Shown here: in pieces, positions 1 through 10,070 of the stretch | Position numbering within the stretch: the stretch's first letter is position 1 | How the letters are laid out: every line of letters begins with the position of its first letter | Source of the DNA: Myxococcales bacterium | GTDB lineage: Bacteria; Myxococcota_A; Polyangia; Haliangiales; Haliangiaceae | DNA length: 45,090 bases | NCBI GenBank assembly: GCA_016794525.1 | Contig: JAEUJY010000077.1 | Coordinates: forward strand, 1 to 45,090 | Direction: 5' to 3' | Position numbers and translations under genes: made by a program | The notes under the pieces: model-generated | What the model was told of the DNA's origin: nothing | Database searches by the model: none | What the model saw: only the letters and a program-made list of their open reading frames with translations

Positions 1-14
1 CCGGCTGAGCCGGG

Positions 15-131
15 CCGCGATCAGTTTGGCCGCCTCGACCGCGCCACTTGGCCGACCCCGATCCGGGCCTCGAGGCCCTGTGGACAACCGCGATCAGTTT
101 GGCCGCCCTTGGCGCGATCAGTACCCCCGCC
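15..131. repeat. 20-bp perfect direct repeat CCGCGATCAGTTTGGCCGCC at 15..34 and 88..107, plus a degenerate third copy at about 111..131
   Basis: Read directly in the sequence. The shared core CGCGATCAGT occurs three times within 120 bp at the window start. Confidence 0.6.
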
Positions 132-208
132 CGTTGACACGGCGACCGCGGATCTCAACGCGCCGCCGGCGTGATGACGGCGGGGTGGCGGCCGATAGGG
201 CCGATAGA

Positions 209-418
209 TCAGGTCTTCAGCGCGCGCTTCACGTCCGCCCATGACACCCCCAGCGCGCCGCCGCGCGCCTCCGCGGCCCGCCGTTCGATCTCGGCGTGGT
301 CGTCGATCGAGATCCCGGGCGGGGGCTCGAAGCTGTCGAGCAAGTGCGCCGCCAGCTACTCGCGCTCGGCGACGGAGAGCGCTATCGCCTGGTCAAGCAG
401 CTCCGCCAGCGTGGCCAT
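209..418 (-). pseudogene. Putative addiction-module antitoxin (TIGR02574-like) interrupted by an in-frame TAG at 356..358
   Basis: Minus-strand translation from the ATG at 418 gives MATLAELLDQAIALSVAERE, then TAG, then LAAHLLDSFEPPPGISIDDHAEIERRAAEARGGALGVSWADVKRALKT ending at TGA 209..211. Both halves are in one frame and resemble the small antitoxin family usually paired with RelE/ParE. The amber sits where ERE-Q-LA would be expected. Confidence 0.4.
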
Positions 419-524
419 GCGTCAGCTTACCAGCTAGCCGCCTGGTATCCTCGCCAAGAGTTTCGACGGCGCCACGCGGTTGTCACCGCGCTGTCGCATT
501 CGAGGCCTACGGCCGAGGGTGACC

Positions 525-2231
525 ATGCACAAGCGCGCGCTGTGGACGATCCTGGTGGTGTTCGGGGTGCTGGCGGCGGCGGGCTGCAAGAAGAAGGTGG
601 ACGATGGCGGCGGCTCGAGCCGCCCGCCGTCGTCGACGCCGGCGCCGCCGACCCAGGCGGCGGTCGAGCTGCGGATCGCGTACGGCAGCGAGAAGAAGGC
701 GTGGCTCGAGGAGCAGATCAAGGCGTGGAACGCGACCGGGCCCAAGACGGCCGGCGGCGCGCCGATCAAGGCGGTCGGCGTGGCGAGCGGCTCCGGCGAG
801 GCGATGCAGGCGATCCTCGACGGATCGAGCCGGCCCCACGTGTTCAGCCCGGCGTCGTCGGCTTACGTCGCGCTGCTCAACCAGGCGTGGCTGTCGCGCG
901 ACGGGCACACCAAGGCGCTCGCGCCGGCGGGCGAGCCGATCGTGCTGTCGCCGATCGTGATCGCGATGTGGAAGCCGATGGCCGAGGCGCTGGGCTGGCC
1001 GGGCAAGGACATCGGCTGGGCCGACCTGGTCAAGCTGTCGCGCGACCCCAAGGGCTGGGCCACCTACCAGCGGCCCGAGTGGGGCACCTTCAAGCTGGGC
1101 CACACCCACCCCGAGTACTCGAACTCCGGCCTGCTCGCGGTGCTGGCCGCCGCGTACGCCGGCACCGGCAAGACCGCCGGGCTCACCCCCGACGATCTGG
1201 CCGCGGCACCGACCCGGGCGTTCCTCGAGGAGGTCGAGGACTCGATCGTCCACTACGGCAAGTCGACCAGCCTGTTCATCGACAAGATGGTCGAGCGTGG
1301 GCCGACGTACCTGTCGGCCGCCGTGCTGTACGAGAACCTCGTCATCGAGGCCAACTCGAAGACGCCCGCCCCGTCGCCACCGCTGGTGGCGATCTACCCC
1401 GTCGAGGGCACGTTCTGGAGCGACCACCCGTACGCGGTCCTCGACGCGGAGTGGGTCGGCGCCGACGAGCGCGCGGCGGCGCAGGCGTTCCTGGCGTTCG
1501 TGAAGGCGCGGCCGGCGCAGGAGCGCGCGCTGGCGCTCGGGTTCCGCCCGGCCGATCCGGCGATCGCGATGGCCGCCCCGATCGACGCCGCCCACGGCGC
1601 CGACCCGCAGCAACCGCAGACGCTGCTGGCGGTGCCCGACGGCGCGACGCTCGAGAAGCTGGTCGCCGCGTGGCGCGCCACCAAGAAGGCCAGCGAGGTG
1701 ACGCTGGTGTTCGACAAGTCGGGCAGCATGGAGGGCCAGCCGCTGGCCGAGGCCAAGTCGGGCGCCGCGACGTTCCTCGACACGCTCGACGATCGCGACC
1801 GGGTGACGCTGGTGTTCTTCGACGACAAGGTCTACCCGCCGATCGGCCCGGTCGAGCTGGGGCCGTCCCGCGCGATGCTGCGCCAGCGCATCGAGGGCAC
1901 GATCGCCTCGGGCGGCACCGCGCTCTACGACGCGGTGGCCGAGGCCCACGCGGCGATGCGCGGCAAGGTCGCCAAGAACCCGCACCGCATCCACGCGATG
2001 GTGGTGATGACCGACGGCGTCGACGAGAACTCGTCGACCACCTTGCCCAAGGTGACCAAGCAGGTCACCGTCGAGGGCGACGCGGCGGTCAGCATCTTCA
2101 CGATCGCCTACGGCACCGAGACCAACCCCGACGCCCTGACCCAGATCGCGGAGAAGTCGCGCGGCACCTTCTCGCGCGGTAGCGTCGCCGACATCCGCGC
2201 GGTGTTCCGCGACATCGGCACGTTCTTCTGA
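525..2231 (+). CDS. Lipoprotein: periplasmic solute-binding (PBP type 2-like) domain fused to a C-terminal von Willebrand factor A domain
   Basis: Signal peptide plus lipobox MHKRALWTILVVFGVLAAAGC followed by a KKK tract. The N-terminal roughly 380 aa is paralogous to CDS 3039..4247 (shared KLGHT.P..SNSGL and FSPASS/WSPADS motifs). The C-terminal part carries a MIDAS-type DxSxS motif (VTLVFDKSGSM), later T and D residues, and AYGTE. Confidence 0.8.
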   Translation: MHKRALWTILVVFGVLAAAGCKKKVDDGGGSSRPPSSTPAPPTQAAVELRIAYGSEKKAWLEEQIKAWNATGPKTAGGAPIKAVGVASGSGEAMQAILDGSSRPHVFSPASSAYVALLNQAWLSRDGHTKALAPAGEPIVLSPIVIAMWKPMAEALGWPGKDIGWADLVKLSRDPKGWATYQRPEWGTFKLGHTHPEYSNSGLLAVLAAAYAGTGKTAGLTPDDLAAAPTRAFLEEVEDSIVHYGKSTSLFIDKMVERGPTYLSAAVLYENLVIEANSKTPAPSPPLVAIYPVEGTFWSDHPYAVLDAEWVGADERAAAQAFLAFVKARPAQERALALGFRPADPAIAMAAPIDAAHGADPQQPQTLLAVPDGATLEKLVAAWRATKKASEVTLVFDKSGSMEGQPLAEAKSGAATFLDTLDDRDRVTLVFFDDKVYPPIGPVELGPSRAMLRQRIEGTIASGGTALYDAVAEAHAAMRGKVAKNPHRIHAMVVMTDGVDENSSTTLPKVTKQVTVEGDAAVSIFTIAYGTETNPDALTQIAEKSRGTFSRGSVADIRAVFRDIGTFF

Positions 2232-2262
2232 TCGCACCGTCCTACTGATCGCCACACCACCC

Positions 2263-3042
2263 ATGGCCCCTCGCTCTCCCTTCGCGCGCGTGTTCGCCCG
2301 GGCCGCCGCCGGTCCGGTCAACCTCGGCGTGGCCGGGGCCGCGGTGGTCGGCGCGGTCGCGCTCGCCAGCTGGCCGATCGCGGTGCTGGGCGGCGCGGCC
2401 TACGCGGCGCTGGTCGCGGTCGACATCACCAACAGCGGCTTCCGCCGCAAGGTGCTGTCGGGGCGCGACGCCCGGCCGGCGCTGCCCGATCCCAAGACGC
2501 TCGAGGATCCCGCGCTCAAGAAGGCGGCGACCGCGGTCGCGACCGCCCGCGCCGAGATCGATCGCGTCGCCAAGGGCGTGCCCGATCGCATCCGCGCCAA
2601 CGTCGCCGGATCGCTGGCCGCCACCGACGAGCTGGTCGGGCACGCCGCCGCGTTGATCGTGCGCGGCGACGCGCTGGCCCGCTACCTGGCCAAGGCCAGC
2701 CGCGCCGACGCCGAGCTCGAGGTCGAGCAGCTCGACGCGCTGGTCGCGGCTGCGACCGACGACGCCGCCCGCCAGCAGTACGCGCTGGCCGCCGAGGCCG
2801 GCCGCGCGCGGGTCAAGTCGCTCGACGAGATCGCCAAGGCCCACCAGCGCATCCTGGCCAACCTGACCCGGCTGGTCGCGGCGCTGCGCGGCGTGCCGAC
2901 CAGCCTGGTGTCGCTGCAGGCCCTCGACGATCAGGCGTCGGACTCGCTCACCGGCAACGTCAGCGGCGATCTGGAGCGGATGAACATCGAGCTGCGGGCG
3001 TTCGAGGACACCCTCGCAACCCTGGTGGAGGTACCGACGTGA
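2263..3042 (+). CDS. Membrane protein with two N-terminal TM helices and a long coiled-coil/helical C-terminal region (hypothetical)
   Basis: Normal amino-acid composition. Hydrophobic stretches VNLGVAGAAVVGAVALASWPIAVLGGAAYAALVAV are followed by a charged helical domain. The stop TGA 3040..3042 overlaps the GTG start of the next gene (GTGA), implying translational coupling. Confidence 0.6.
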   Translation: MAPRSPFARVFARAAAGPVNLGVAGAAVVGAVALASWPIAVLGGAAYAALVAVDITNSGFRRKVLSGRDARPALPDPKTLEDPALKKAATAVATARAEIDRVAKGVPDRIRANVAGSLAATDELVGHAAALIVRGDALARYLAKASRADAELEVEQLDALVAAATDDAARQQYALAAEAGRARVKSLDEIAKAHQRILANLTRLVAALRGVPTSLVSLQALDDQASDSLTGNVSGDLERMNIELRAFEDTLATLVEVPT

Positions 3043-4247
3043 AGCAGAAGGTCGCGATCATCGGAGCGTTCGTCGCGTTCGCCGTGGTGCTGATCCTCGT
3101 GGTCGGCGGCGGCGGCAAGAAGAAGGGTGGTGACAAGCCGGCGCCAGGACCGCCGCCGGCCCCCGCCGGCAGCGGCACGTCGTCCGCCGGCGGCAAGGTC
3201 ATGATCGACTTCCTGTACTCCAGCGAGAAGAAGGACTGGATCGACGCGGCGATCGTCGAGTTCGAGAAGGCCAACCCCGACGTCGACGTGGTCGCGGCCA
3301 GCAAGGGCTCGCTCGACGCCGCGTCCGGGATCCTCGACGGCAGCCTCAAGCCGGTGCTGTGGAGCCCGGCCGACTCGCTGATCGTCAACCTGCTCGCCAC
3401 CGACTGGCAGACCAAGTACGGCAAGCGGCCGTTCCCCGCCGACGGCGAGGCCGGGCCGCAGCAGCTGTTGCTGTCGCCGCTGGTGTTCGCGGTGTGGGAA
3501 GACCGCGCCAAGGTGCTGATGGCCGCGTCGGGCGGCGACAGCCTGACGTGGAAGGCGATCCACAAGGCGGTCACGTCGCCCAAGGGCTGGTCGGCGATCG
3601 GCGGCAAGCCGGCCTGGGGCTTCGTCAAGCTCGGCCACACCGACCCCAACAAGTCCAACTCGGGCCTGCAGGCGCTCTTGCTGATGACGCTCGAGTACTA
3701 CACCAAGACCAGCGGCCTCACCGTCGACGAGCTGTTCGACGAGAAGTACCAGACCTGGGTCAAGGAGATCGAGAAGGGCGTGCCGACCTTCGAGGCGTCG
3801 ACCGGCACGTTCATGACCGACATGGTCCGGTTCGGCCCGTCGAAGTACGACATCGCGGTGGTCTACGAGAGCCTCGCGATCTCGCAGCTCGAGAACGCGC
3901 AGGGGCGCTGGGGCAACCTGCGCATCTACTACCCGCCGGTGACGCTGTGGAGCGATCACCCGGTGGTGATGCTCGGCGGCGACTGGGTCACGCCGGCGCA
4001 GGCCAAGGCCGCCGAGCGGCTGATCGCCTACCTGCGCGGCCACGAGGCGCAGAGCATGGCGCTGCGGTTCGGCTTCCGCCCGGCCGACACCTCGCTGCCG
4101 CTCAAGACCAGCGACGGCGCCAACCCGTTCACGCGGCTCGCGCAGTACGGCCTGGCGCTCGAGCTGCCCGAGGCGGCGACCGCGCCCGACGGCGCCGTGG
4201 TGCGCAACCTCCTGATGATGTGGTCGCGCGTCGCGCGGCCGCAGTAG
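3039..4247 (+). CDS. Membrane-anchored periplasmic solute-binding protein, paralog of the N-terminal domain of CDS 525..2231
   Basis: GTG start, N-terminal TM anchor IIGAFVAFAVVLILVV followed by GGGGKKKGG. Clear paralogy with gene 525..2231 (LYSSEKKDWIDAAIVEFEKANP vs IAYGSEKKAWLEEQIKAWNATGP; KLGHTDPNKSNSGL vs KLGHTHPEYSNSGL). No vWA domain. Confidence 0.8.
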   Translation: MKQKVAIIGAFVAFAVVLILVVGGGGKKKGGDKPAPGPPPAPAGSGTSSAGGKVMIDFLYSSEKKDWIDAAIVEFEKANPDVDVVAASKGSLDAASGILDGSLKPVLWSPADSLIVNLLATDWQTKYGKRPFPADGEAGPQQLLLSPLVFAVWEDRAKVLMAASGGDSLTWKAIHKAVTSPKGWSAIGGKPAWGFVKLGHTDPNKSNSGLQALLLMTLEYYTKTSGLTVDELFDEKYQTWVKEIEKGVPTFEASTGTFMTDMVRFGPSKYDIAVVYESLAISQLENAQGRWGNLRIYYPPVTLWSDHPVVMLGGDWVTPAQAKAAERLIAYLRGHEAQSMALRFGFRPADTSLPLKTSDGANPFTRLAQYGLALELPEAATAPDGAVVRNLLMMWSRVARPQ

Positions 4248-4253
4248 CGGTCG

Positions 4254-4847
4254 CTACTTCTTCATCACGAGCACCGTCAGCACGCCCTGCAGCTGCGGCG
4301 CGGTGGCGCTCGAGACGTTGGCGGCGGTGGCGTTCGGGTCGACGGCGATGGCCTTGACCTCGACGGTGTGGTTGCCGGGCGTCAGGTTGTACGAGCGGGC
4401 CATCGACCAGTTGGCGATCATCTGGCCGACCGCCGCCGAGTTGGCGGCGACCACCCGGCGCACGCCGCCCTGGTTGGACGCGATGCCGTCGACGAAGATC
4501 GCGATGTCGACGGCCGAGTAGGCGGTGCCGGCGGCGGTGCACTGGATGCCGCCGTTGGTGCTGACGTGGACCGCGGCGTCGTCGGGCACGGTGATCACCT
4601 GCTGCAGGCCGGGGATCAGCACGTAGCTGGTGATCGCCGACGTCACCGTGAGCTGGCCGGTGCCGTAGATCTCGTAGAGGTTCTGGCCGGTGGTGCCGGC
4701 GGGGCCCGCCGGCCCGGTCGCGCCGATGTTGCCGGTGGCGCCGGTCTGGCCCGGGGGACCCTCGGGGCCGGGCTCGCCGTCGAGACCCGCCGGCCCCGAG
4801 CAAGCGACCGCGAGCAGGAGCGTACCGATCGGCCAGAGCGTGCGCAT
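4254..4847 (-). CDS. Collagen-like triple-helix repeat lipoprotein with a C-terminal globular (BclA/C1q-like) domain
   Basis: Start MRTLWPIGTLLLAVACS (lipobox) at 4845..4847. Thirteen consecutive G-X-Y triplets (GPAGLDGEPGPEGPPGQTGATGNIGATGPAGPAGTTGQN) are followed by a roughly 140-aa beta-rich domain. Convergent with the SBP gene, with stop codons 6 bp apart. Confidence 0.7.
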   Translation of the reverse strand: MRTLWPIGTLLLAVACSGPAGLDGEPGPEGPPGQTGATGNIGATGPAGPAGTTGQNLYEIYGTGQLTVTSAITSYVLIPGLQQVITVPDDAAVHVSTNGGIQCTAAGTAYSAVDIAIFVDGIASNQGGVRRVVAANSAAVGQMIANWSMARSYNLTPGNHTVEVKAIAVDPNATAANVSSATAPQLQGVLTVLVMKK

Positions 4848-4893
4848 CGCGCCGACGCTATCAGAGCGCTCGCCGGCTGTGTCAGCATGCGGC

Positions 4894-6000
4894 ATGCGTC
4901 GCTTCGCCGTCGTCGCTCTCGCCGCGCTCGCGTGCTCGAAGTCCTCGGCCCCGCCGCCGGCGGCGGCCCCGCCGCCGGCCACGCCGCCGACCCCGGTCCC
5001 CGCCGCGCCGGCGAGCTGCCTGCGCGACGTCGGCCAGGTCCAGGCCGCGCGCGGCGCGCCGAGCCAGCCGATGCGGCCGACCCACACCTTCTCGATCGTC
5101 GCGCGCGATCCGGTCACCGGCGATCTCGGCGTCGCGGTGCAGTCGCACTGGTTCGCGGTGGGTGCGCTCGTGACCTGGGCCGAGCCCGGCGTCGGCGCGA
5201 TCGCGACGCAGTCGTTCGCCGAGCCGGCCTACGGGCGCAAGGGCCTCGAGCGGATGCGCGCCGGCGCCAGCGCCCCCGACGCGCTGGCCGCGATCCTGGC
5301 CGAGGACGCCAAGCGCGACGTGCGGCAGGTGGCGTTCGTCGACGGCAAGGGCCAGGTCGCGGCCCACACCGGCGCCGCGAACATCGCGTTCGCCGGGCAC
5401 CACACCGGCGCCGGCTACTCGGTGCAGGCCAACATGATGGCCAACGATCGCGTCGTGCCGGCGATGCAGGCCGCCTACGAGGGCGCCACCGGGGACCTCG
5501 CCGAGCGCCTGCTGGCCACGCTGGCGGCGGCGCAGGCGGCGGGCGGCGACGTCCGCGGCTGCCAGTCGGCGGCCATGCTGATCGTCAAGGGCACGCCCTC
5601 GGCCGAGCCGTCCCACGACACGCTCGTCGACCTGCGCGTCGACGACGCCGCCGATCCGATCGGCGAGCTGGGCCGGCTGCTCAAGCTGCAGCGGGTCTAC
5701 GATCACATGAACGCTGGCGACGCCGCGGTCGAGCGCGGCGACGTCCCCGGCGCCAAGCAGCACTACGGCGCCGCGGCGGCCGCCGCCCCCGACCTGACCG
5801 AGGTCCGCTACTGGAGCGCGGTCGCGCTGGCCTCGGCCGGCGAGCTCGACGCCGCGCTGCCAATGTTCACCAAGATCTTCGCCGAGGACAGCCGGTGGAT
5901 CGAGCTGACCCGCCGCATCCAGCCGGCGGTGGTGCCCGCCACCCCCGAGGGCGACGCGGTGATCCAGAAGATCCTGACCGCCGCGCCGCCGCCGCGCTGA
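4894..6000 (+). CDS. DUF1028 family (Ntn-hydrolase-like) lipoprotein with a C-terminal helical extension
   Basis: Start MRRFAVVALAALACS. The mature part contains THTFSIVARDPVTGDLGVAVQS, matching the TFSI-ARD N-terminal nucleophile signature I associate with DUF1028. Divergent from the collagen-like gene with a 46-bp gap. Confidence 0.7.
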   Translation: MRRFAVVALAALACSKSSAPPPAAAPPPATPPTPVPAAPASCLRDVGQVQAARGAPSQPMRPTHTFSIVARDPVTGDLGVAVQSHWFAVGALVTWAEPGVGAIATQSFAEPAYGRKGLERMRAGASAPDALAAILAEDAKRDVRQVAFVDGKGQVAAHTGAANIAFAGHHTGAGYSVQANMMANDRVVPAMQAAYEGATGDLAERLLATLAAAQAAGGDVRGCQSAAMLIVKGTPSAEPSHDTLVDLRVDDAADPIGELGRLLKLQRVYDHMNAGDAAVERGDVPGAKQHYGAAAAAAPDLTEVRYWSAVALASAGELDAALPMFTKIFAEDSRWIELTRRIQPAVVPATPEGDAVIQKILTAAPPPR

Positions 6001-6030: not shown

Positions 6031-6621
6031 ATGGATCAGGATCGCGAGCTGCTCGAGCGGTGGCGCGCAGGCGACCAGGCCGCCGGCCGCGATCTGTTCG
6101 CGCGCTACTTCGATCCGCTGTTCCGGTTCTTCGCCAACAAGTGCAACGAGCCCGACGAGCTGGTCCAGGCGACGTTCTTCGCGCTGGTGAAGGCCCGCGA
6201 TCAGTTCGCCGGCCGCTCGAGCTTCCGCACCTACCTGTTCACGATCGCGCGCAACGAGCTGTACCGCTGGCTGCGCACGTTCAAGCGCGAGCGCGGCTTC
6301 GACCCCGAGCTGTCGTCGATCGCCGAGGTCGCGACCACCGCCGGCTCGCGGCTGGCCCGCAACGAGGAGCACCGCCGGCTGTGCGCCGCGCTGCGCACGC
6401 TGCCGGTCGAGTCGCAGACCCTGCTCGAGCTGCACTACTGGGAGGGCCTCGACGCCACCGCGCTGGCCGAGGTCTTCGACGCCCAGGTCGCCACCATCCG
6501 CCAGCGCCTCTCGCGCGCCCGCCTCGCCCTCAAGGACGCCCTGGCCGCCAGCGCCGGCGCCCCGCTGCCCCTGGCCACGGTCGAGGACATGGACACCTGG
6601 GCGAAGTCGCTGGCGGGATAG
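6031..6621 (+). CDS. ECF (sigma-70 family group IV) RNA polymerase sigma factor
   Basis: Region 2-like FFALVKARDQFAGRSSFRTYLFTIARNELYRWLR and region 4-like LPVESQTLLELHYWEGLDATALAEVFDAQVATIRQRLSRARLAL. No anti-sigma gene follows it. Confidence 0.85.
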   Translation: MDQDRELLERWRAGDQAAGRDLFARYFDPLFRFFANKCNEPDELVQATFFALVKARDQFAGRSSFRTYLFTIARNELYRWLRTFKRERGFDPELSSIAEVATTAGSRLARNEEHRRLCAALRTLPVESQTLLELHYWEGLDATALAEVFDAQVATIRQRLSRARLALKDALAASAGAPLPLATVEDMDTWAKSLAG

Positions 6622-6643
6622 GGCGCCCGGTGGGCGGGCCACT

Positions 6644-6655
6644 TTTTTCGGTCAC
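6644..6655 (+). promoter_or_regulatory. Conserved motif TTTTTCGGTCAC lying 28 nt upstream of the start codon of lipoprotein paralog A
   Basis: The same 12-mer occurs at 7800..7811 and 8948..8959, each with an identical 28-nt spacing to the ATG of paralogs B and C. A -10-like CTTCAT/CTGTAT/GTGTAT follows at a fixed offset. Confidence 0.45.
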
Positions 6656-6683
6656 AACGCCGACCGACCTTCATCCATTGGGC

Positions 6684-7742
6684 ATGAAGCGAACCGTTGT
6701 GGCACTCCCGCTCGCCCTGGCTCTGGCCGCGTGTGTCGATAGCCCTGGGGTCGGGCAGGACGAGAGCGCGGTCGTAAACGGCGATGGCGAAGCCTGTCCC
6801 AAGCTGGGCTGCAGCTCGAACTCGGCGTACCTGGGACCGACCGAGTTCCACGAGCTGGAGGAGACCGGGACTTACGCGAACGCCGAGGGCCTGTACCTCA
6901 AGGGCTTGATCAAGAACGGCGTGACCTGGCGTCCCGACGTCACCGGCACGGTATTGATCGGCTATCGATGGGTGCTGGTCGGCGGGATGCTGACCCGTCA
7001 GACGCTCAGCGGGGCGAACCTGGTCAACGCAGAGCTGGTGGTCAAGAACGCGGCCGGCACCCTCGAGTACCGGATCCGCATCACCAACGCGTCGCAGAAT
7101 CAGCAGTTCTGGCAGGCGCCGATCACCAGCGTGAACACCTACGAGCTCAAGTGGCGGCAGGTGGTGCCGACCTCGACCGACTTCGTCCCGGTGTGCAAGA
7201 ACCCGCCGAACCCGGAGACCGAGGACGGCCCCATCCAGAACACGATCGAGTCGATCCTGTTCACGGGCGATCGCTACGACACCGACACGCTGACGGTCAC
7301 CGCGTCGACGCCGGCCGAGGCGACGACCTGGTTCAACATCGGCTGCGCTGGGACGGTGCTCGCGAAGCTCGCGCTCAACCGGCACACCGACGCGACCAAG
7401 TCGGCCCAGGTCACCACCACTCGCGCCCAGCGCCAGGCGATGCTGAAGATGTACACGTCGGACGTGTGTGGCACGGGCGACGCGCTCACGGTCAGCGGCA
7501 CGCCGCTGCGCTGGTGGAGCGCCACCGGCCTCACCAGCAAGGTCATCCCGACGACCTCCAAGGAGGCGCTGTGGACCCAAAACGGCGCCCTCTGCCTCGA
7601 CACGCATCGGCTCGACGGCACCGCGGACGACATGACCAAGCAGATCGAGGACGCCTGCAAGCGAGCCAACCGGCCGGTCCCGCCACCCTGCGTCGATGTC
7701 TCGAGCCCCTGGGACTTCCGGACCGAGAGCCAGGCTCAATGA
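6684..7742 (+). CDS. Secreted lipoprotein, paralog A of a tandem triplicated Cys-rich family
   Basis: Start MKRTVVALPLALALAAC. Blocks GDGEACPKLGCSSNSAYLGPTEFHELEETGTY, VCKNPPN, FNIGCAGTVLAKLALNRHT, YTSDVC, GALCLDTHRL and ANRPVPPPC are shared with paralogs B and C. Confidence 0.8.
   Translation: MKRTVVALPLALALAACVDSPGVGQDESAVVNGDGEACPKLGCSSNSAYLGPTEFHELEETGTYANAEGLYLKGLIKNGVTWRPDVTGTVLIGYRWVLVGGMLTRQTLSGANLVNAELVVKNAAGTLEYRIRITNASQNQQFWQAPITSVNTYELKWRQVVPTSTDFVPVCKNPPNPETEDGPIQNTIESILFTGDRYDTDTLTVTASTPAEATTWFNIGCAGTVLAKLALNRHTDATKSAQVTTTRAQRQAMLKMYTSDVCGTGDALTVSGTPLRWWSATGLTSKVIPTTSKEALWTQNGALCLDTHRLDGTADDMTKQIEDACKRANRPVPPPCVDVSSPWDFRTESQAQ
7259..7560. repeat. Roughly 300-bp direct repeat, about 88-90% nt identity, between paralog A (about 7259..7560) and paralog B (about 8404..8690)
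   Basis: The DNA aligns directly across the GDRYDTDTLTVTASTPAEATTWFNIGCAGTVLAKLALNRHTDATKSAQVTTTR region. This region is identical at the protein level in A and B but diverged in C. Confidence 0.6.
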
Positions 7743-7799
7743 GCTAACGATCTCAGGCCGTTACGTCGCCGGGTCGCCCAGATGGGGTGACCCGGCGCG

Positions 7800-7811
7800 T
7801 TTTTCGGTCAC
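7800..7811 (+). promoter_or_regulatory. Second copy of TTTTTCGGTCAC, 28 nt upstream of the ATG of paralog B
   Basis: Direct sequence comparison. It is flanked upstream by GGTGACC, which forms an inverted repeat with GGTCAC. Confidence 0.45.
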
Positions 7812-7839
7812 GGCGCGCGTCTTCCTGTATCTACGGGGC

Positions 7840-8889
7840 ATGACGCGACACATCATGGCGCTGGCGGCGGCGCTGGCGGCGGGCTGAACTGGCGAACTGG
7901 CGACCGGAAGCGGCGAGAGCCTGGTCATCAACGGTGATGGCGAGGCCTGCCCGAAGCTCGGCTGCAGCTCCAACTCGGCGTACCTGGGCCCGACCGAGTT
8001 CCACGAGCTCGAGGAGACCGGCACGTACCCCAACGCCGAAGGCCTGTACCTCAAGGGCCTGGTCAAGAACGGCTTGACCTATCGCCCCAACGTCACGGGG
8101 ACGGAGTTGACCGCCTCGCGCTGGGCGTTGGTCGGTGGCTTCTGGATCTACCAGACACTCAGCGGGGCGAACCTGGTCAACTCCGAGCTGGTGGTCAAGA
8201 ACGCCACCGGCTCGCTCGAGTACCGCATCCGCATCGCGAACGCGTCGACGATCCAGAAGTTCTGGCAGGCCCCGATCACCACGGTGAACACCTACGAGCT
8301 CCAGTGGCGCCTGGCCACCTCCACCTACTACACCCCGGTGTGCAAGAACCCGCCGAACCGCCTGGATGACACCGGCAACTGGAACAACATCCTCGAGGCG
8401 ATCCTCTTCACCGGCGATCGCTACGACACCGACACCCTGACAGTCACCGCGTCGACGCCGGCGGAGGCGACGACCTGGTTCAACATCGGCTGCGCCGGGA
8501 CGGTCCTGGCGAAGCTCGCCCTCAACCGGCACACCGACGCGACGAAGTCGGCGCAGGTCACCACCACGCGGGACCAGCGGCAGGCGATGCTGAAGATGTA
8601 CACGTCGGACGTGTGCAACAGCGGCGACGCGTTGACCGTGACCGGCACGCCGTTGCGCTGGTGGAGCGCCACCGGCCTCACCAGCAAGGCGATCGCGGTC
8701 TACTCCAACGAGGCGCGGTGGACCGCCGATGGCGCGCTGTGTCTGGACACGCACCGGCTCGATGGGACCCCGGATGACAGGACCGCGCAGATCGCGGACG
8801 CCTGCCAGCGCGCCAACCGACCGGTGCCCCCGCCCTGTGCCGACGTCACGACCAGCTGGGACTTCCGCACCGAGAGCCAGGCGCACTAA
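7840..8889 (+). pseudogene. Lipoprotein paralog B with an in-frame TGA (7885..7887) exactly at the lipobox Cys codon
   Basis: A single reading frame gives MTRHIMALAAALAAG, then TGA, then TGELATGSGESLVINGDGEACPKLGCSSNS and the rest through 8889. Paralog C has Cys at the same position (LAAVGC). Downstream the protein is about 90% identical to A. Confidence 0.6.
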
Positions 8890-8947
8890 CGACACGTTTT
8901 CAGATGGTTGGACGCGGGGGCACCGGAAAAGGGTGACCCCGGTGTGC

Positions 8948-8959
8948 TTTTTCGGTCAC
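8948..8959 (+). promoter_or_regulatory. Third copy of TTTTTCGGTCAC, 28 nt upstream of the ATG of paralog C
   Basis: Direct sequence comparison. It is preceded by GGGTGACCCCGG, the same arrangement as upstream of B. Confidence 0.45.
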
Positions 8960-8987
8960 AGGGGACCGCCGCGTGTATCAACCCGGC

Positions 8988-10070
8988 ATGACCCGACACA
9001 TCCTGGCACTCGCGACGGCGCTGGCGGCGGTGGGCTGTACGGACGACCTGGTGACCGGAAGCGACGAGAGCCCGGTCATCAATGGAGATGGCGAGGCCTG
9101 CCCCAAGCTCGGGTGCAGCTCGAACTCGGCGTACCTGGGCCCGACCGAGTTCCACGAGCTCGAGGAGACCGGCACCTACGCCAACGCCGAGGGCTTCCGG
9201 ATCACCAGCTTCACCAAGACGGTGGGCGGCGTGACCACGACCTACCGCCCCGACGTCACCGGGACGACGCTGGTGGGCAAGCGGTACAGCACCTTGATCC
9301 ACGGCTGGTACACCGCGCTCAGCGGCCCCGACCTGGTCGGCGCGGTGTTCAACGTCGACCGCACCGTCCGCGGTGTCGTCACGGCGAGGTACCAGATCGG
9401 GATCACCGCGGCGAGCACCGCGCAGGAGTACTGGCAGCCGCCGGCCGGCCTGCTGAACACCTACGAGCTGCAGTGGCGCATGATCTACCCGAGCGCCACC
9501 CACCTCGTGCCGGTCTGCAACAACCCACCCAACCGTCTCGATGGCGAGGGGACGTGGTGGCGCAAGACCACCGAGGCGGTACTGTTCACGGGCGATCGCT
9601 ACGACACCGAGTCGCTGACCGTGACCGCCGGCGATCCAGCGTCGTCGGGTGACTGGTTCAACATCGGCTGCTCGGGCACCGTGCTGGCCAAGCTCGCGCT
9701 CAACCGCCACACCTTCGCCACCCAGTCGTCCACGGCGCCGACCACGATCGCGCAACGCCAGGCGATGCTCAAGATGTACGCCTCGGACGTGTGTAACACC
9801 GGCGACGCGCTGACCGTGGTCGGCACGCCGCTGCGCTGGAACAGCACCACCGGCCTGGCCAGCCCCCCGATCGCGGTGAACAGCTACGAGGCCCGGTGGA
9901 CTGCCAGCGGGGCGCTCTGCCTCGACACCCACCGCCTGAACGGCACCCCCGACGACATGGACGCGCAGATCGCCGCCGCGTGCGCCGCCGCGGGCAAGGC
10001 GGTGCCGCCGCCGTGCGCGGGCGCGTCGACGAGCTACTACCTGCGCACCACCAGCCCCGCGCTGCCCTGA
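8988..10070 (+). CDS. Secreted lipoprotein, paralog C of the tandem family (more diverged)
   Basis: Start MTRHILALATALAAVGC; a GTG at 8973 is an alternative start. All family Cys blocks are retained. Convergent with the kinase gene, whose stop is 7 bp away. Confidence 0.8.
   Translation: MTRHILALATALAAVGCTDDLVTGSDESPVINGDGEACPKLGCSSNSAYLGPTEFHELEETGTYANAEGFRITSFTKTVGGVTTTYRPDVTGTTLVGKRYSTLIHGWYTALSGPDLVGAVFNVDRTVRGVVTARYQIGITAASTAQEYWQPPAGLLNTYELQWRMIYPSATHLVPVCNNPPNRLDGEGTWWRKTTEAVLFTGDRYDTESLTVTAGDPASSGDWFNIGCSGTVLAKLALNRHTFATQSSTAPTTIAQRQAMLKMYASDVCNTGDALTVVGTPLRWNSTTGLASPPIAVNSYEARWTASGALCLDTHRLNGTPDDMDAQIAAACAAAGKAVPPPCAGASTSYYLRTTSPALP

Follow-up and report, generated by a model that had tools for sequence, protein, structure and literature searches.

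The closest described relatives of the system discussed here are found in PspA operons. In their survey of the partners of Psp, Ravi et al. (2024, mSystems, PMC11237479) describe PspA together with an AAA+ ATPase of two domains, the N-terminal one being an inactive copy. The same theme includes a membrane-anchored helical protein ('divergent Snf7') and a PBPb solute-binding protein, with one example in Archangium gephyra. We have studied a cassette of three genes in contig JAEUJY010000077.1 of a Myxococcales bacterium; the window, which is the whole stretch of DNA analysed, has 45,090 nt. The three genes, which we call A, B and C, lie on the same (+) strand and fill positions 525..4247. Gene A codes for a lipoprotein with a solute-binding domain fused to a von Willebrand factor A (vWA) domain. 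Gene C is a stand-alone paralogue of this binding domain, and gene B codes for a predicted inner-membrane protein with a helical bundle. In our view this cassette is probably a so far undescribed module of envelope sensing: it is conserved as a unit in several phyla, it has no transporter, and in one group of relatives its genes are in the same operon as those of PspA and an AAA+ ATPase.

In these relatives the gene order is A-C-PspA-B-AAA+ ATPase. As in the operons of the survey, PspA and an AAA+ ATPase go together with periplasmic binding proteins and with a helical protein anchored in the membrane, whose gene is immediately before that of the ATPase. The nature of these binding proteins is different: here they are Sbp-like SBP_bac_11 paralogues, one of them fused to vWA, whereas in the survey they are PBPb(+OmpA). 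The cassette also differs by having no ATPase or permease of the ATP-binding cassette (ABC) type, by the lack of detectable Snf7 or PspA similarity in B, and by the absence of PspA and AAA+ ATPase from the operon of the window. The main text and the supplement of the survey make no mention of vWA or SBP_bac_11, and the PspA link of the cassette is absent from this main Psp survey.

A second group of systems to be compared are the co-sensor binding proteins. LuxP and TorT act in this way for the membrane signal transducers LuxQ and TorS. The common feature is the use of a periplasmic fold for sensing together with a membrane partner; 6lkg_A ('two-component system protein mediate signal transduction') is among the top Foldseek matches. 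The cassette differs from them by having two binding domains and a vWA domain, and B has no signalling domain: no kinase, HAMP, MCP or other recognisable one was found in it with Pfam.

Gene A (525..2231, + strand) codes for a protein of 568 aa, defined by its open reading frame (ORF), Pfam, its orthologue and an AlphaFold2 (AF2) model. An alternative TTG at position 480 would lengthen the ORF. We have taken the ATG at 525 as the start because it gives a canonical lipobox and agrees with a database orthologue of 568 aa, 'VWA domain-containing protein', which is 97% identical. The gene opens with a lipoprotein signal peptide (525..587, + strand), MHKRALWTILVVFGVLAAAGC, which is followed by KKK. 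Both the sequence and the orthologue alignment place the lipobox LAAAGC here, with Cys21 followed by Lys at +2. Gene A counts as a bacterial lipoprotein through this signal peptide with a terminal lipobox (pattern [LVI][ASTVI][GAS]C). Among 62 orthologues Cys21 is invariant and 49 have a recognisable lipobox.

Two domains are found by Pfam in gene A: SBP_bac_11 in residues 49-341 (E 1.2e-20, 74.7 bits, cut-off 25) and VWA in residues 392-548 (E 1.1e-15, 58.8 bits, cut-off 23.8). The binding-protein domain is delimited as residues 47-385 (663..1679, + strand) by Foldseek, by matches of profiles with the PDB and by its invariant motifs. The vWA domain occupies 1698..2168 (+ strand), with the DxSxS motif (D397, S399, S401) of the metal ion-dependent adhesion site (MIDAS) at 1713..1727. 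These three residues, T465 and D497 are invariant in 62/62 orthologues and in a cross-phylum alignment. The vWA domain is complete, with its MIDAS intact. The AF2 model, built on the 62 orthologues, has a mean pLDDT of 87.9 and a pTM of 0.83; with its C-terminal half Foldseek matches the vWA domain of ITIH, BatB (3ibs) and a Catenulispora vWA. A PBP type-2-like binding domain fused to a complete vWA domain is what a preliminary description of this DNA had proposed for gene A, and Pfam, the structural matches and the invariant MIDAS residues all agree with it. The positions and structures which it gave for the three genes are confirmed as well.

The vWA domain recalls the membrane-anchored proteins BatA/BatB, of the aerotolerance operon, and the YfbK-type 'Ca-activated chloride channel homologues', which share with A an intact MIDAS exposed at the inner membrane. 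A Bat/MoxR-type system was rejected: there are no MoxR ATPase, DUF58 or TPR Bat partners among the neighbours. Gene A reaches 21.4 with the NCBIfam model of BatA, whose cut-off is 380, and the fusion with a solute-binding protein (SBP) is specific to the A family. In the JGI annotation the orthologues of gene A are labelled 'Ca-activated chloride channel family protein'.

Gene C (3039..4247, + strand) has 402 aa and is recognised by Pfam and by its paralogy with A. It starts with a transmembrane (TM) anchor in residues 5-23 (3051..3107, + strand), defined by a hydropathy which reaches 3.07 and by invariant positions, with conserved I7 and F11. Residues 59-347 correspond to SBP_bac_11 (E 5.9e-18, 65.9 bits, cut-off 25). 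The binding domain of A and gene C have 35% identity over 353 residues (E 2e-53): they are paralogues, and C is indeed a stand-alone, membrane-anchored copy, as had been suggested in the preliminary description. The 16 orthologues of gene C which we have aligned, all from Myxococcota, have a mean column identity of 69%.

Both domains are genuine type-II periplasmic binding folds, as shown by Pfam and, for A, by its structural matches. With the N-terminal half of A Foldseek ranks two sulfate-binding proteins first (5um2 and 1sbp), then AfuA, TbpA, FbpA and PotF; for Sbp, AfuA, TbpA and FbpA the probability is 1.00 and the TM scores, normalised by the target, are 0.62-0.74. When a profile made from both paralogues is compared with the PDB, its matches are limited to sulfate-binding proteins: SubI (6ddn, E 1.7e-6), Sbp (1sbp, 1.8e-4) and 5um2 (4e-4). 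By profile and by fold, the nearest solved relatives are therefore SubI, Sbp and the Xanthomonas Sbp. A C-terminal 'RP.D' motif is common to A, C and the group of Sbp, CysP and SubI, which gives the best fold matches and the sole significant profile matches in the PDB. The identity is about 15-17% and the profile match lies mainly in the C-terminal third. In contrast with these proteins, A and C are tethered, paired, have no adjoining permease and one of them is fused to vWA.

The binding domain of A contains many invariant motifs: YGSEK, GSG, SPAS, HTxPxxSNSG, HYGKST, YEN, YPxEGTFWSDHP and GFRP. A signature common to the A domain and to C is maintained across four phyla: (Y)-x-S/T-E-K, G-S, S-P-A, S-P, P-x-x-S-x-S-G, Y-E, Y-P, H-P and G-F-R. 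In the AF2 model the conserved motifs are placed at strand-to-helix junctions, which in type-II binding proteins line the cleft between the two lobes. For Sbp we take the residues which bind sulfate to be Asp11, Ser45, Ser130-Gly131-Gly132, Ala173 and Trp192. A Ser invariant in the family (S90 in A) is aligned with Ser45, but in a weak segment of 3.4 bits. The invariant S-x-S-G loop may be the counterpart of S130-G132; HMMER left this loop unaligned. From the residues of the cleft we infer that the ligand is anionic.

Gene B (2263..3042, + strand) codes for 259 aa. From AF2 and hydropathy it is predicted to be anchored in the inner membrane by a two-helix hairpin at its N-terminus, with a helical bundle in the cytoplasm. 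The putative membrane hairpin covers residues ~17-57 (2311..2433, + strand), with a turn at a conserved S-W-P, as judged from hydropathy and conservation: the hydrophobic stretch has about 40 residues and is rich in Ala, Gly and Val. In the hairpin region G25, L34, W37, P38, G43, A46, Y47, L50 and D54 are invariant. The helical domain extends over residues ~70-255 (2470..3027, + strand). In the AF2 model it is an antiparallel bundle, with a pLDDT >85 in residues 70-230 (85-97 in 70-220). Gene B had been described earlier as a two-TM coiled-coil protein: the two-helix membrane hairpin is retained as a prediction, but coiled coil is a loose term for such a bundle.

The B family is large, with 1003 cluster representatives at E<=1e-3. 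Pfam and NCBIfam searches with gene B and about 170 relatives did not show any consistent family, only scattered coiled-coil noise, and a sequence search of the PDB found nothing. There is no Pfam match of the family to Snf7 or PspA. A TelA/XpaC-like, PspA-like or Snf7-like nature of B was considered and dropped, since neither Pfam nor hhalign supports it. The Pfam model of Rv2743c touches two of 113 family members, with E about 0.009. The likeness of B to LiaI of B. subtilis and to PspM/Rv2743c of mycobacteria is of another kind: like them B is a small membrane protein, with two predicted TM helices, and its gene is next to that of PspA in the related operons. There is no sequence relationship with them, and B, unlike LiaI, has a helical bundle of about 190 residues, predicted to be cytoplasmic. 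A further homology search, started from distant homologues of B, gave for the most part the close set again. One distant homologue is found in a different context, in the locus that we call L033: it is flanked by the gene of a zinc-ribbon protein on one side and by genes for molybdopterin synthesis (MoaE, ThiS-like, MoCF_biosynth) on the other.

Genes B and C are joined by a translational coupling signal (3026..3042, + strand), which can be read directly in the sequence: a GGAGG Shine-Dalgarno is found 8-9 nt upstream of the GTG start of C, and this start overlaps the TGA stop of B (GTGA). The overlap, already noticed in the preliminary description, is real; in orthologous loci the B-C junction has 0-12 nt. 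A terminator-like hairpin is present at the end of gene C (4235..4254, + strand), but it is only suggestive: the consensus scan gave two such sites versus 1.2 expected.

In order to define the cassette in other organisms we have used 108 related loci. A scan with a profile of gene B and one genome per species gave 28 loci, and a metagenome scan with a profile of A only gave 80 loci, which were classified by local profile searches. The 28 loci of the B-profile scan are all from Myxococcota (Haliangiales, Kofleriaceae, Anaeromyxobacter, Archangium, Vitiosangium and Myxococcaceae). In nearly all of those with complete flanks A is directly upstream of B and C directly downstream. Three near-identical genomes of Myxococcales have A, B and C side by side, and so does Archangium minus, where the flanking genes are entirely different. 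Over the 108 loci, A adjoins C, B or both wherever there is sufficient flanking sequence; the 13 loci with A only are all on truncated contigs, with less than 500 nt after A. The genes recur together in more than 80 independent loci and their co-location is therefore far beyond chance.

Four gene orders are found. A-B-C is the order of Myxococcota, with about 43 cases if species and metagenome loci are taken together. The other three orders come from metagenome loci: A-C-PspA-B-AAA+ ATPase (15 complete and five truncated by contig ends), A-C-B (five) and C-A-B (five). The last one is the order of Chloroflexota, and its group includes a protein deposited from Longilinea, a genus of this phylum. 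In Actinomycetota, a plasmid of Miltoncostaea has A followed by a clear gene B homologue (hhalign 97.7%, E 1.6e-12), and a Streptomyces plasmid has A followed by a protein of B-like architecture with weak similarity. In Gammaproteobacteria, a plasmid of Thiodictyon has a C-like paralogue (hhalign 99.5%) after A. The search for the triad of binding protein-vWA, TM protein and binding protein, which had been proposed within Myxococcota, has thus shown that it recurs in several orders and extends beyond Myxococcota: relatives are also found in Chloroflexota and Actinomycetota.

Some of these loci have individual peculiarities. In the Thiodictyon plasmid pTs417 (L036 1..5000) the A-C pair is near pstS and a CHAD-domain gene, both associated with phosphate or polyphosphate, and near a hemolysin III gene; this is a hint, from a single genome, at a phosphate-related context. 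L013 (4916..10130) is the sole Kofleriaceae locus which has B-C without A: a TonB_C-domain protein is found upstream, in the place of A, and a caspase-domain (Peptidase_C14) protein downstream. In one of the near-identical genomes, GCA_016708565.1 (L001 12492..13699), gene C is broken into ORFs of 113 aa and 295 aa in different frames, either a frameshift pseudogene or an error of long-read assembly. No fourth conserved gene was found in the Myxococcota loci, which show only synteny specific to a clade, for example with tRNA-guanine transglycosylase. The Chloroflexota-type loci have unrelated genes at their sides: PHP, sugar SBP, MprF, amylase and TetR. One of these loci, with the order C-A-B (L078 10744..13455), has an MprF-like lysyl-phosphatidylglycerol synthase about 2.4 kb downstream, which may be a coincidence or a link with membrane lipids.

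There is no transporter associated with the cassette. No ABC permease or ATPase is present within +/-10 kb in the four genomes mentioned above (the three near-identical Myxococcales and Archangium minus). In the 108 loci and the window, a Walker A motif together with an ABC signature (LSGGQ-type) is found in a single ORF, on the opposite strand and about 4 kb away. A three-gene unit conserved without a transporter has as its natural reading a role in sensing. The preliminary description had reached the same view from the lack of permease and ATPase genes nearby, and both the absence and the choice of ligand sensing rather than transport are supported by the wider set of loci. An ABC transporter conserved together with these genes, which would have spoken against this view, is not present. 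The cassette is a clear case of binding proteins of the transporter type which are used again without a transporter.

The link with PspA is found in a clade whose A is 42-48% identical to that of the window. In this clade gene C is followed by a protein of 248 aa, identified by Pfam as PspA_IM30 (PF04012) with 45.2 bits versus a gathering cut-off of 33.9. The PspA homologue is present in 22 loci. It is followed by a protein of ~285 aa (287 aa), conserved in 24 ORFs, and then by an AAA+ ATPase conserved in 18 ORFs. The ~285-aa protein is built like that of gene B: it has W-P in its hairpin, the motif N-x-x-F and a helical domain. A comparison of the two families with hhalign gives 96.3% (E 1.5e-9, 198 columns), and the protein between PspA and the AAA+ ATPase is accordingly a homologue in the gene B family. 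An example of the five-gene operon is found in L095 (8920..12277); there are 14 other complete loci, such as L071, L083, L112 and L116. They belong to a lineage of about 60% GC from soil and sediment.

The location of the three proteins can be predicted. In the 49 orthologues of A with a recognisable lipobox, the residue at +2 after the Cys is K in 25 and R in six, so that 31/49 have K or R; the A of the window has Lys. In M. xanthus eight of 12 inner-membrane lipoproteins carry Lys at +2, and a signal sequence with +2 Lys sent mCherry to the inner membrane (PMC3222651). The +2 Lys thus points to an inner-membrane location for the lipoprotein of gene A. For gene C a plain N-terminal TM anchor predicts an inner-membrane protein. 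The hairpin of B is flanked by K/R on both sides, three before and five after; according to the positive-inside rule, both termini of B should be cytoplasmic. The invariant residues in the hairpin of B and in the anchor of C, together with the translational coupling of their genes, suggest a contact between B and C inside the membrane.

With these elements we tentatively favour the following interpretation: A and C would form a periplasmic sensor at the inner membrane, B would connect this sensor with the cytoplasmic face, and the function of the whole would be linked to membrane maintenance of the PspA type. A lipid anchor would hold A, a TM helix would hold C, and both would show an Sbp-like binding domain to the periplasm. 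The motifs of the cleft suggest a small anionic ligand, either a tetrahedral oxyanion or the anionic group of a larger molecule. The MIDAS metal site of A might clamp a carboxylate of a partner, most likely C or another envelope protein. Binding of the ligand would alter the assembly of A and C. B would touch the anchors of A and C inside the membrane, in a complex of the three proteins, and would present its helical bundle to the cytoplasm. As the output, membrane maintenance of the PspA type (ESCRT-III-like) would be recruited or controlled, with B as a membrane adaptor comparable to LiaI or PspM. We propose this output because in one lineage PspA/IM30 and an AAA+ ATPase are encoded in the same operon as the orthologues of A, C and B. 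In the lineage of the window the effector may be encoded elsewhere, or B may act alone. A bolder view is that A, C and B are a previously unrecognised and widespread periplasmic input module for ESCRT-III-like membrane remodelling by PspA/IM30 and the AAA+ ATPase, with B as a new family of PspA adaptors. A sensor gated by a ligand or an ion would then inform the repair proteins of the cytoplasm of the place or the moment of envelope damage. This view appears to us less likely than not.

Several observations weigh against the coupling to PspA-type maintenance. No PspA homologue (profile, E<=0.01) or matching AAA+ ATPase is found in the 45-kb window, nor within +/-6 kb of the ~43 A-B-C loci, so that the evidence for a link with PspA comes from a single clade, the one with an A 42-48% identical. 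B has no recognisable output domain. It does not resemble any known membrane partner of Psp (PspB, PspC, LiaI-LiaF-TM, Toastrack or PspM) in Pfam, even when its ~170 relatives are included. Comparison of its profiles by hhalign gives a probability of 0.2% with a PspA-like alignment of the related operons and 0.1-0.3% with yeast Snf7. The hairpin is moderately hydrophobic (1.4-2.0) and modelled with a pLDDT <50, so that its insertion in the membrane is a prediction only. The B family is also broader than the cassette, since the distant homologue in L033 (8001..8834, 23% identity) occurs without A or C. Finally, the cassette is not always complete: two loci (L086 and L114) have A-C without B, followed by more than 3 kb of unrelated sequence, and Miltoncostaea and Streptomyces keep only A-B. 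B or C can therefore be dispensable in some lineages.

Other explanations start from the same domains. A and C might be orphan SBPs which capture sulfate, thiosulfate or a related anion for a CysTWA-like ABC permease encoded elsewhere, with vWA and B only organizing them at the membrane. The sulfate-binding proteins are their closest solved relatives by profile and fold, the motifs of the binding cleft are strongly conserved and membrane tethering is common among binding proteins. But over 100 loci from at least four phyla have no co-located ABC permease or ATPase, apart from the one ORF with ABC motifs. Neither A nor C reaches the cut-off of any NCBIfam model of a transporter SBP (the best is WtpA, with 17.7 bits versus 242.75), and gene A has no SBP equivalog match in NCBIfam. 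Furthermore the two paralogues always occur as a pair in which one carries vWA, and transport would give no reason for their being conserved together with B or, in relatives, with PspA and AAA+ ATPase. We consider this explanation very improbable. The same domains could hold an oxyanion, and MIDAS a divalent cation, in a periplasmic sequestration or detoxification of anions and metals loosely similar to the ter/TelA resistance to toxic anions, in which B would stabilize the membrane and there would be no signalling. This would agree with the Sbp-like domains, the intact metal site, the helical and membrane-associated architecture of B and the locus near pstS and a CHAD-domain gene. It is unlikely: stoichiometric binding by membrane-tethered proteins has little capacity, no ter genes are nearby, B and its relatives (~170 members) do not match TelA or any other Pfam family, and the Thiodictyon neighbourhood is a single case.

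The preliminary description had also suggested a surface adhesion module. In such a module, at the cell surface or in the outer membrane, the vWA domain would bind a ligand in the matrix, in the prey or in kin cells, in the manner of vWA adhesins, with a surface carbohydrate or an anion as the target of the binding domains. An intact MIDAS vWA is indeed a hallmark of many adhesins, and myxobacteria use vWA adhesins. The inferred topology is against it: Lys or Arg at +2 after the lipobox Cys predicts retention in the inner membrane, the plain N-terminal TM anchor makes C an inner-membrane protein, and the partners B, PspA and AAA+ ATPase act at the cytoplasmic face of this membrane. The cassette is also found in relatives from Actinomycetota and Chloroflexota. 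Adhesion is therefore highly unlikely. The probability that remains, after our interpretation as a sensor and these three explanations, corresponds to functions of other kinds.

The architecture had been presented as undescribed, which is only partly correct. The fusion is already named in NCBI as 'substrate-binding and VWA domain-containing protein', and its homologues number in the thousands. In the literature we have found no functional study of this protein or of the cassette, using as terms the fusion, SBP_bac_11 with VWA, and PspA with von Willebrand and solute-binding. What appears undescribed is the cassette of three genes, its permuted orders across phyla, the B family and the operonic link with PspA and AAA+ ATPase. 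None of A, B and C matches the anti-phage models of PADLOC. The B family by itself comprises about 1000 clusters at 50% identity without a Pfam model. The way in which PspA, IM30 and ESCRT-III-like proteins sense damage of the envelope is poorly understood beyond a few model systems; if our interpretation is true, the cassette would be a concrete candidate for a periplasmic input to membrane repair. It is small and self-contained, and it is found in culturable genera (Archangium, Vitiosangium, Corallococcus, Sorangium and Streptomyces), so that genetics and biochemistry are feasible.

We will finally mention the neighbours of the cassette in the window. Directly upstream of A, and divergent from it, there is a ParE toxin gene, cut by the edge of the window, with an Unstab_antitox antitoxin gene (1..423, - strand); they were assigned by means of the near-identical loci L001-L003. 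The next ORF after C is convergent (4254..5117, - strand) and has a collagen-like Gly-X-Y repeat, GLDGEPGPEGPPGQTGATGNIGATGPAGPAGTTG; its orthologue in L001 and L002 has a weak match to Pfam Collagen. The region 6031..10070 starts with a gene for a sigma factor of the extracytoplasmic function (ECF) type (6031..6621), which is followed by three tandem paralogues of a secreted protein with an ADYC domain (PF20032). The number of these paralogues varies between strains: there are one to two copies in the near-identical L001 and L002.

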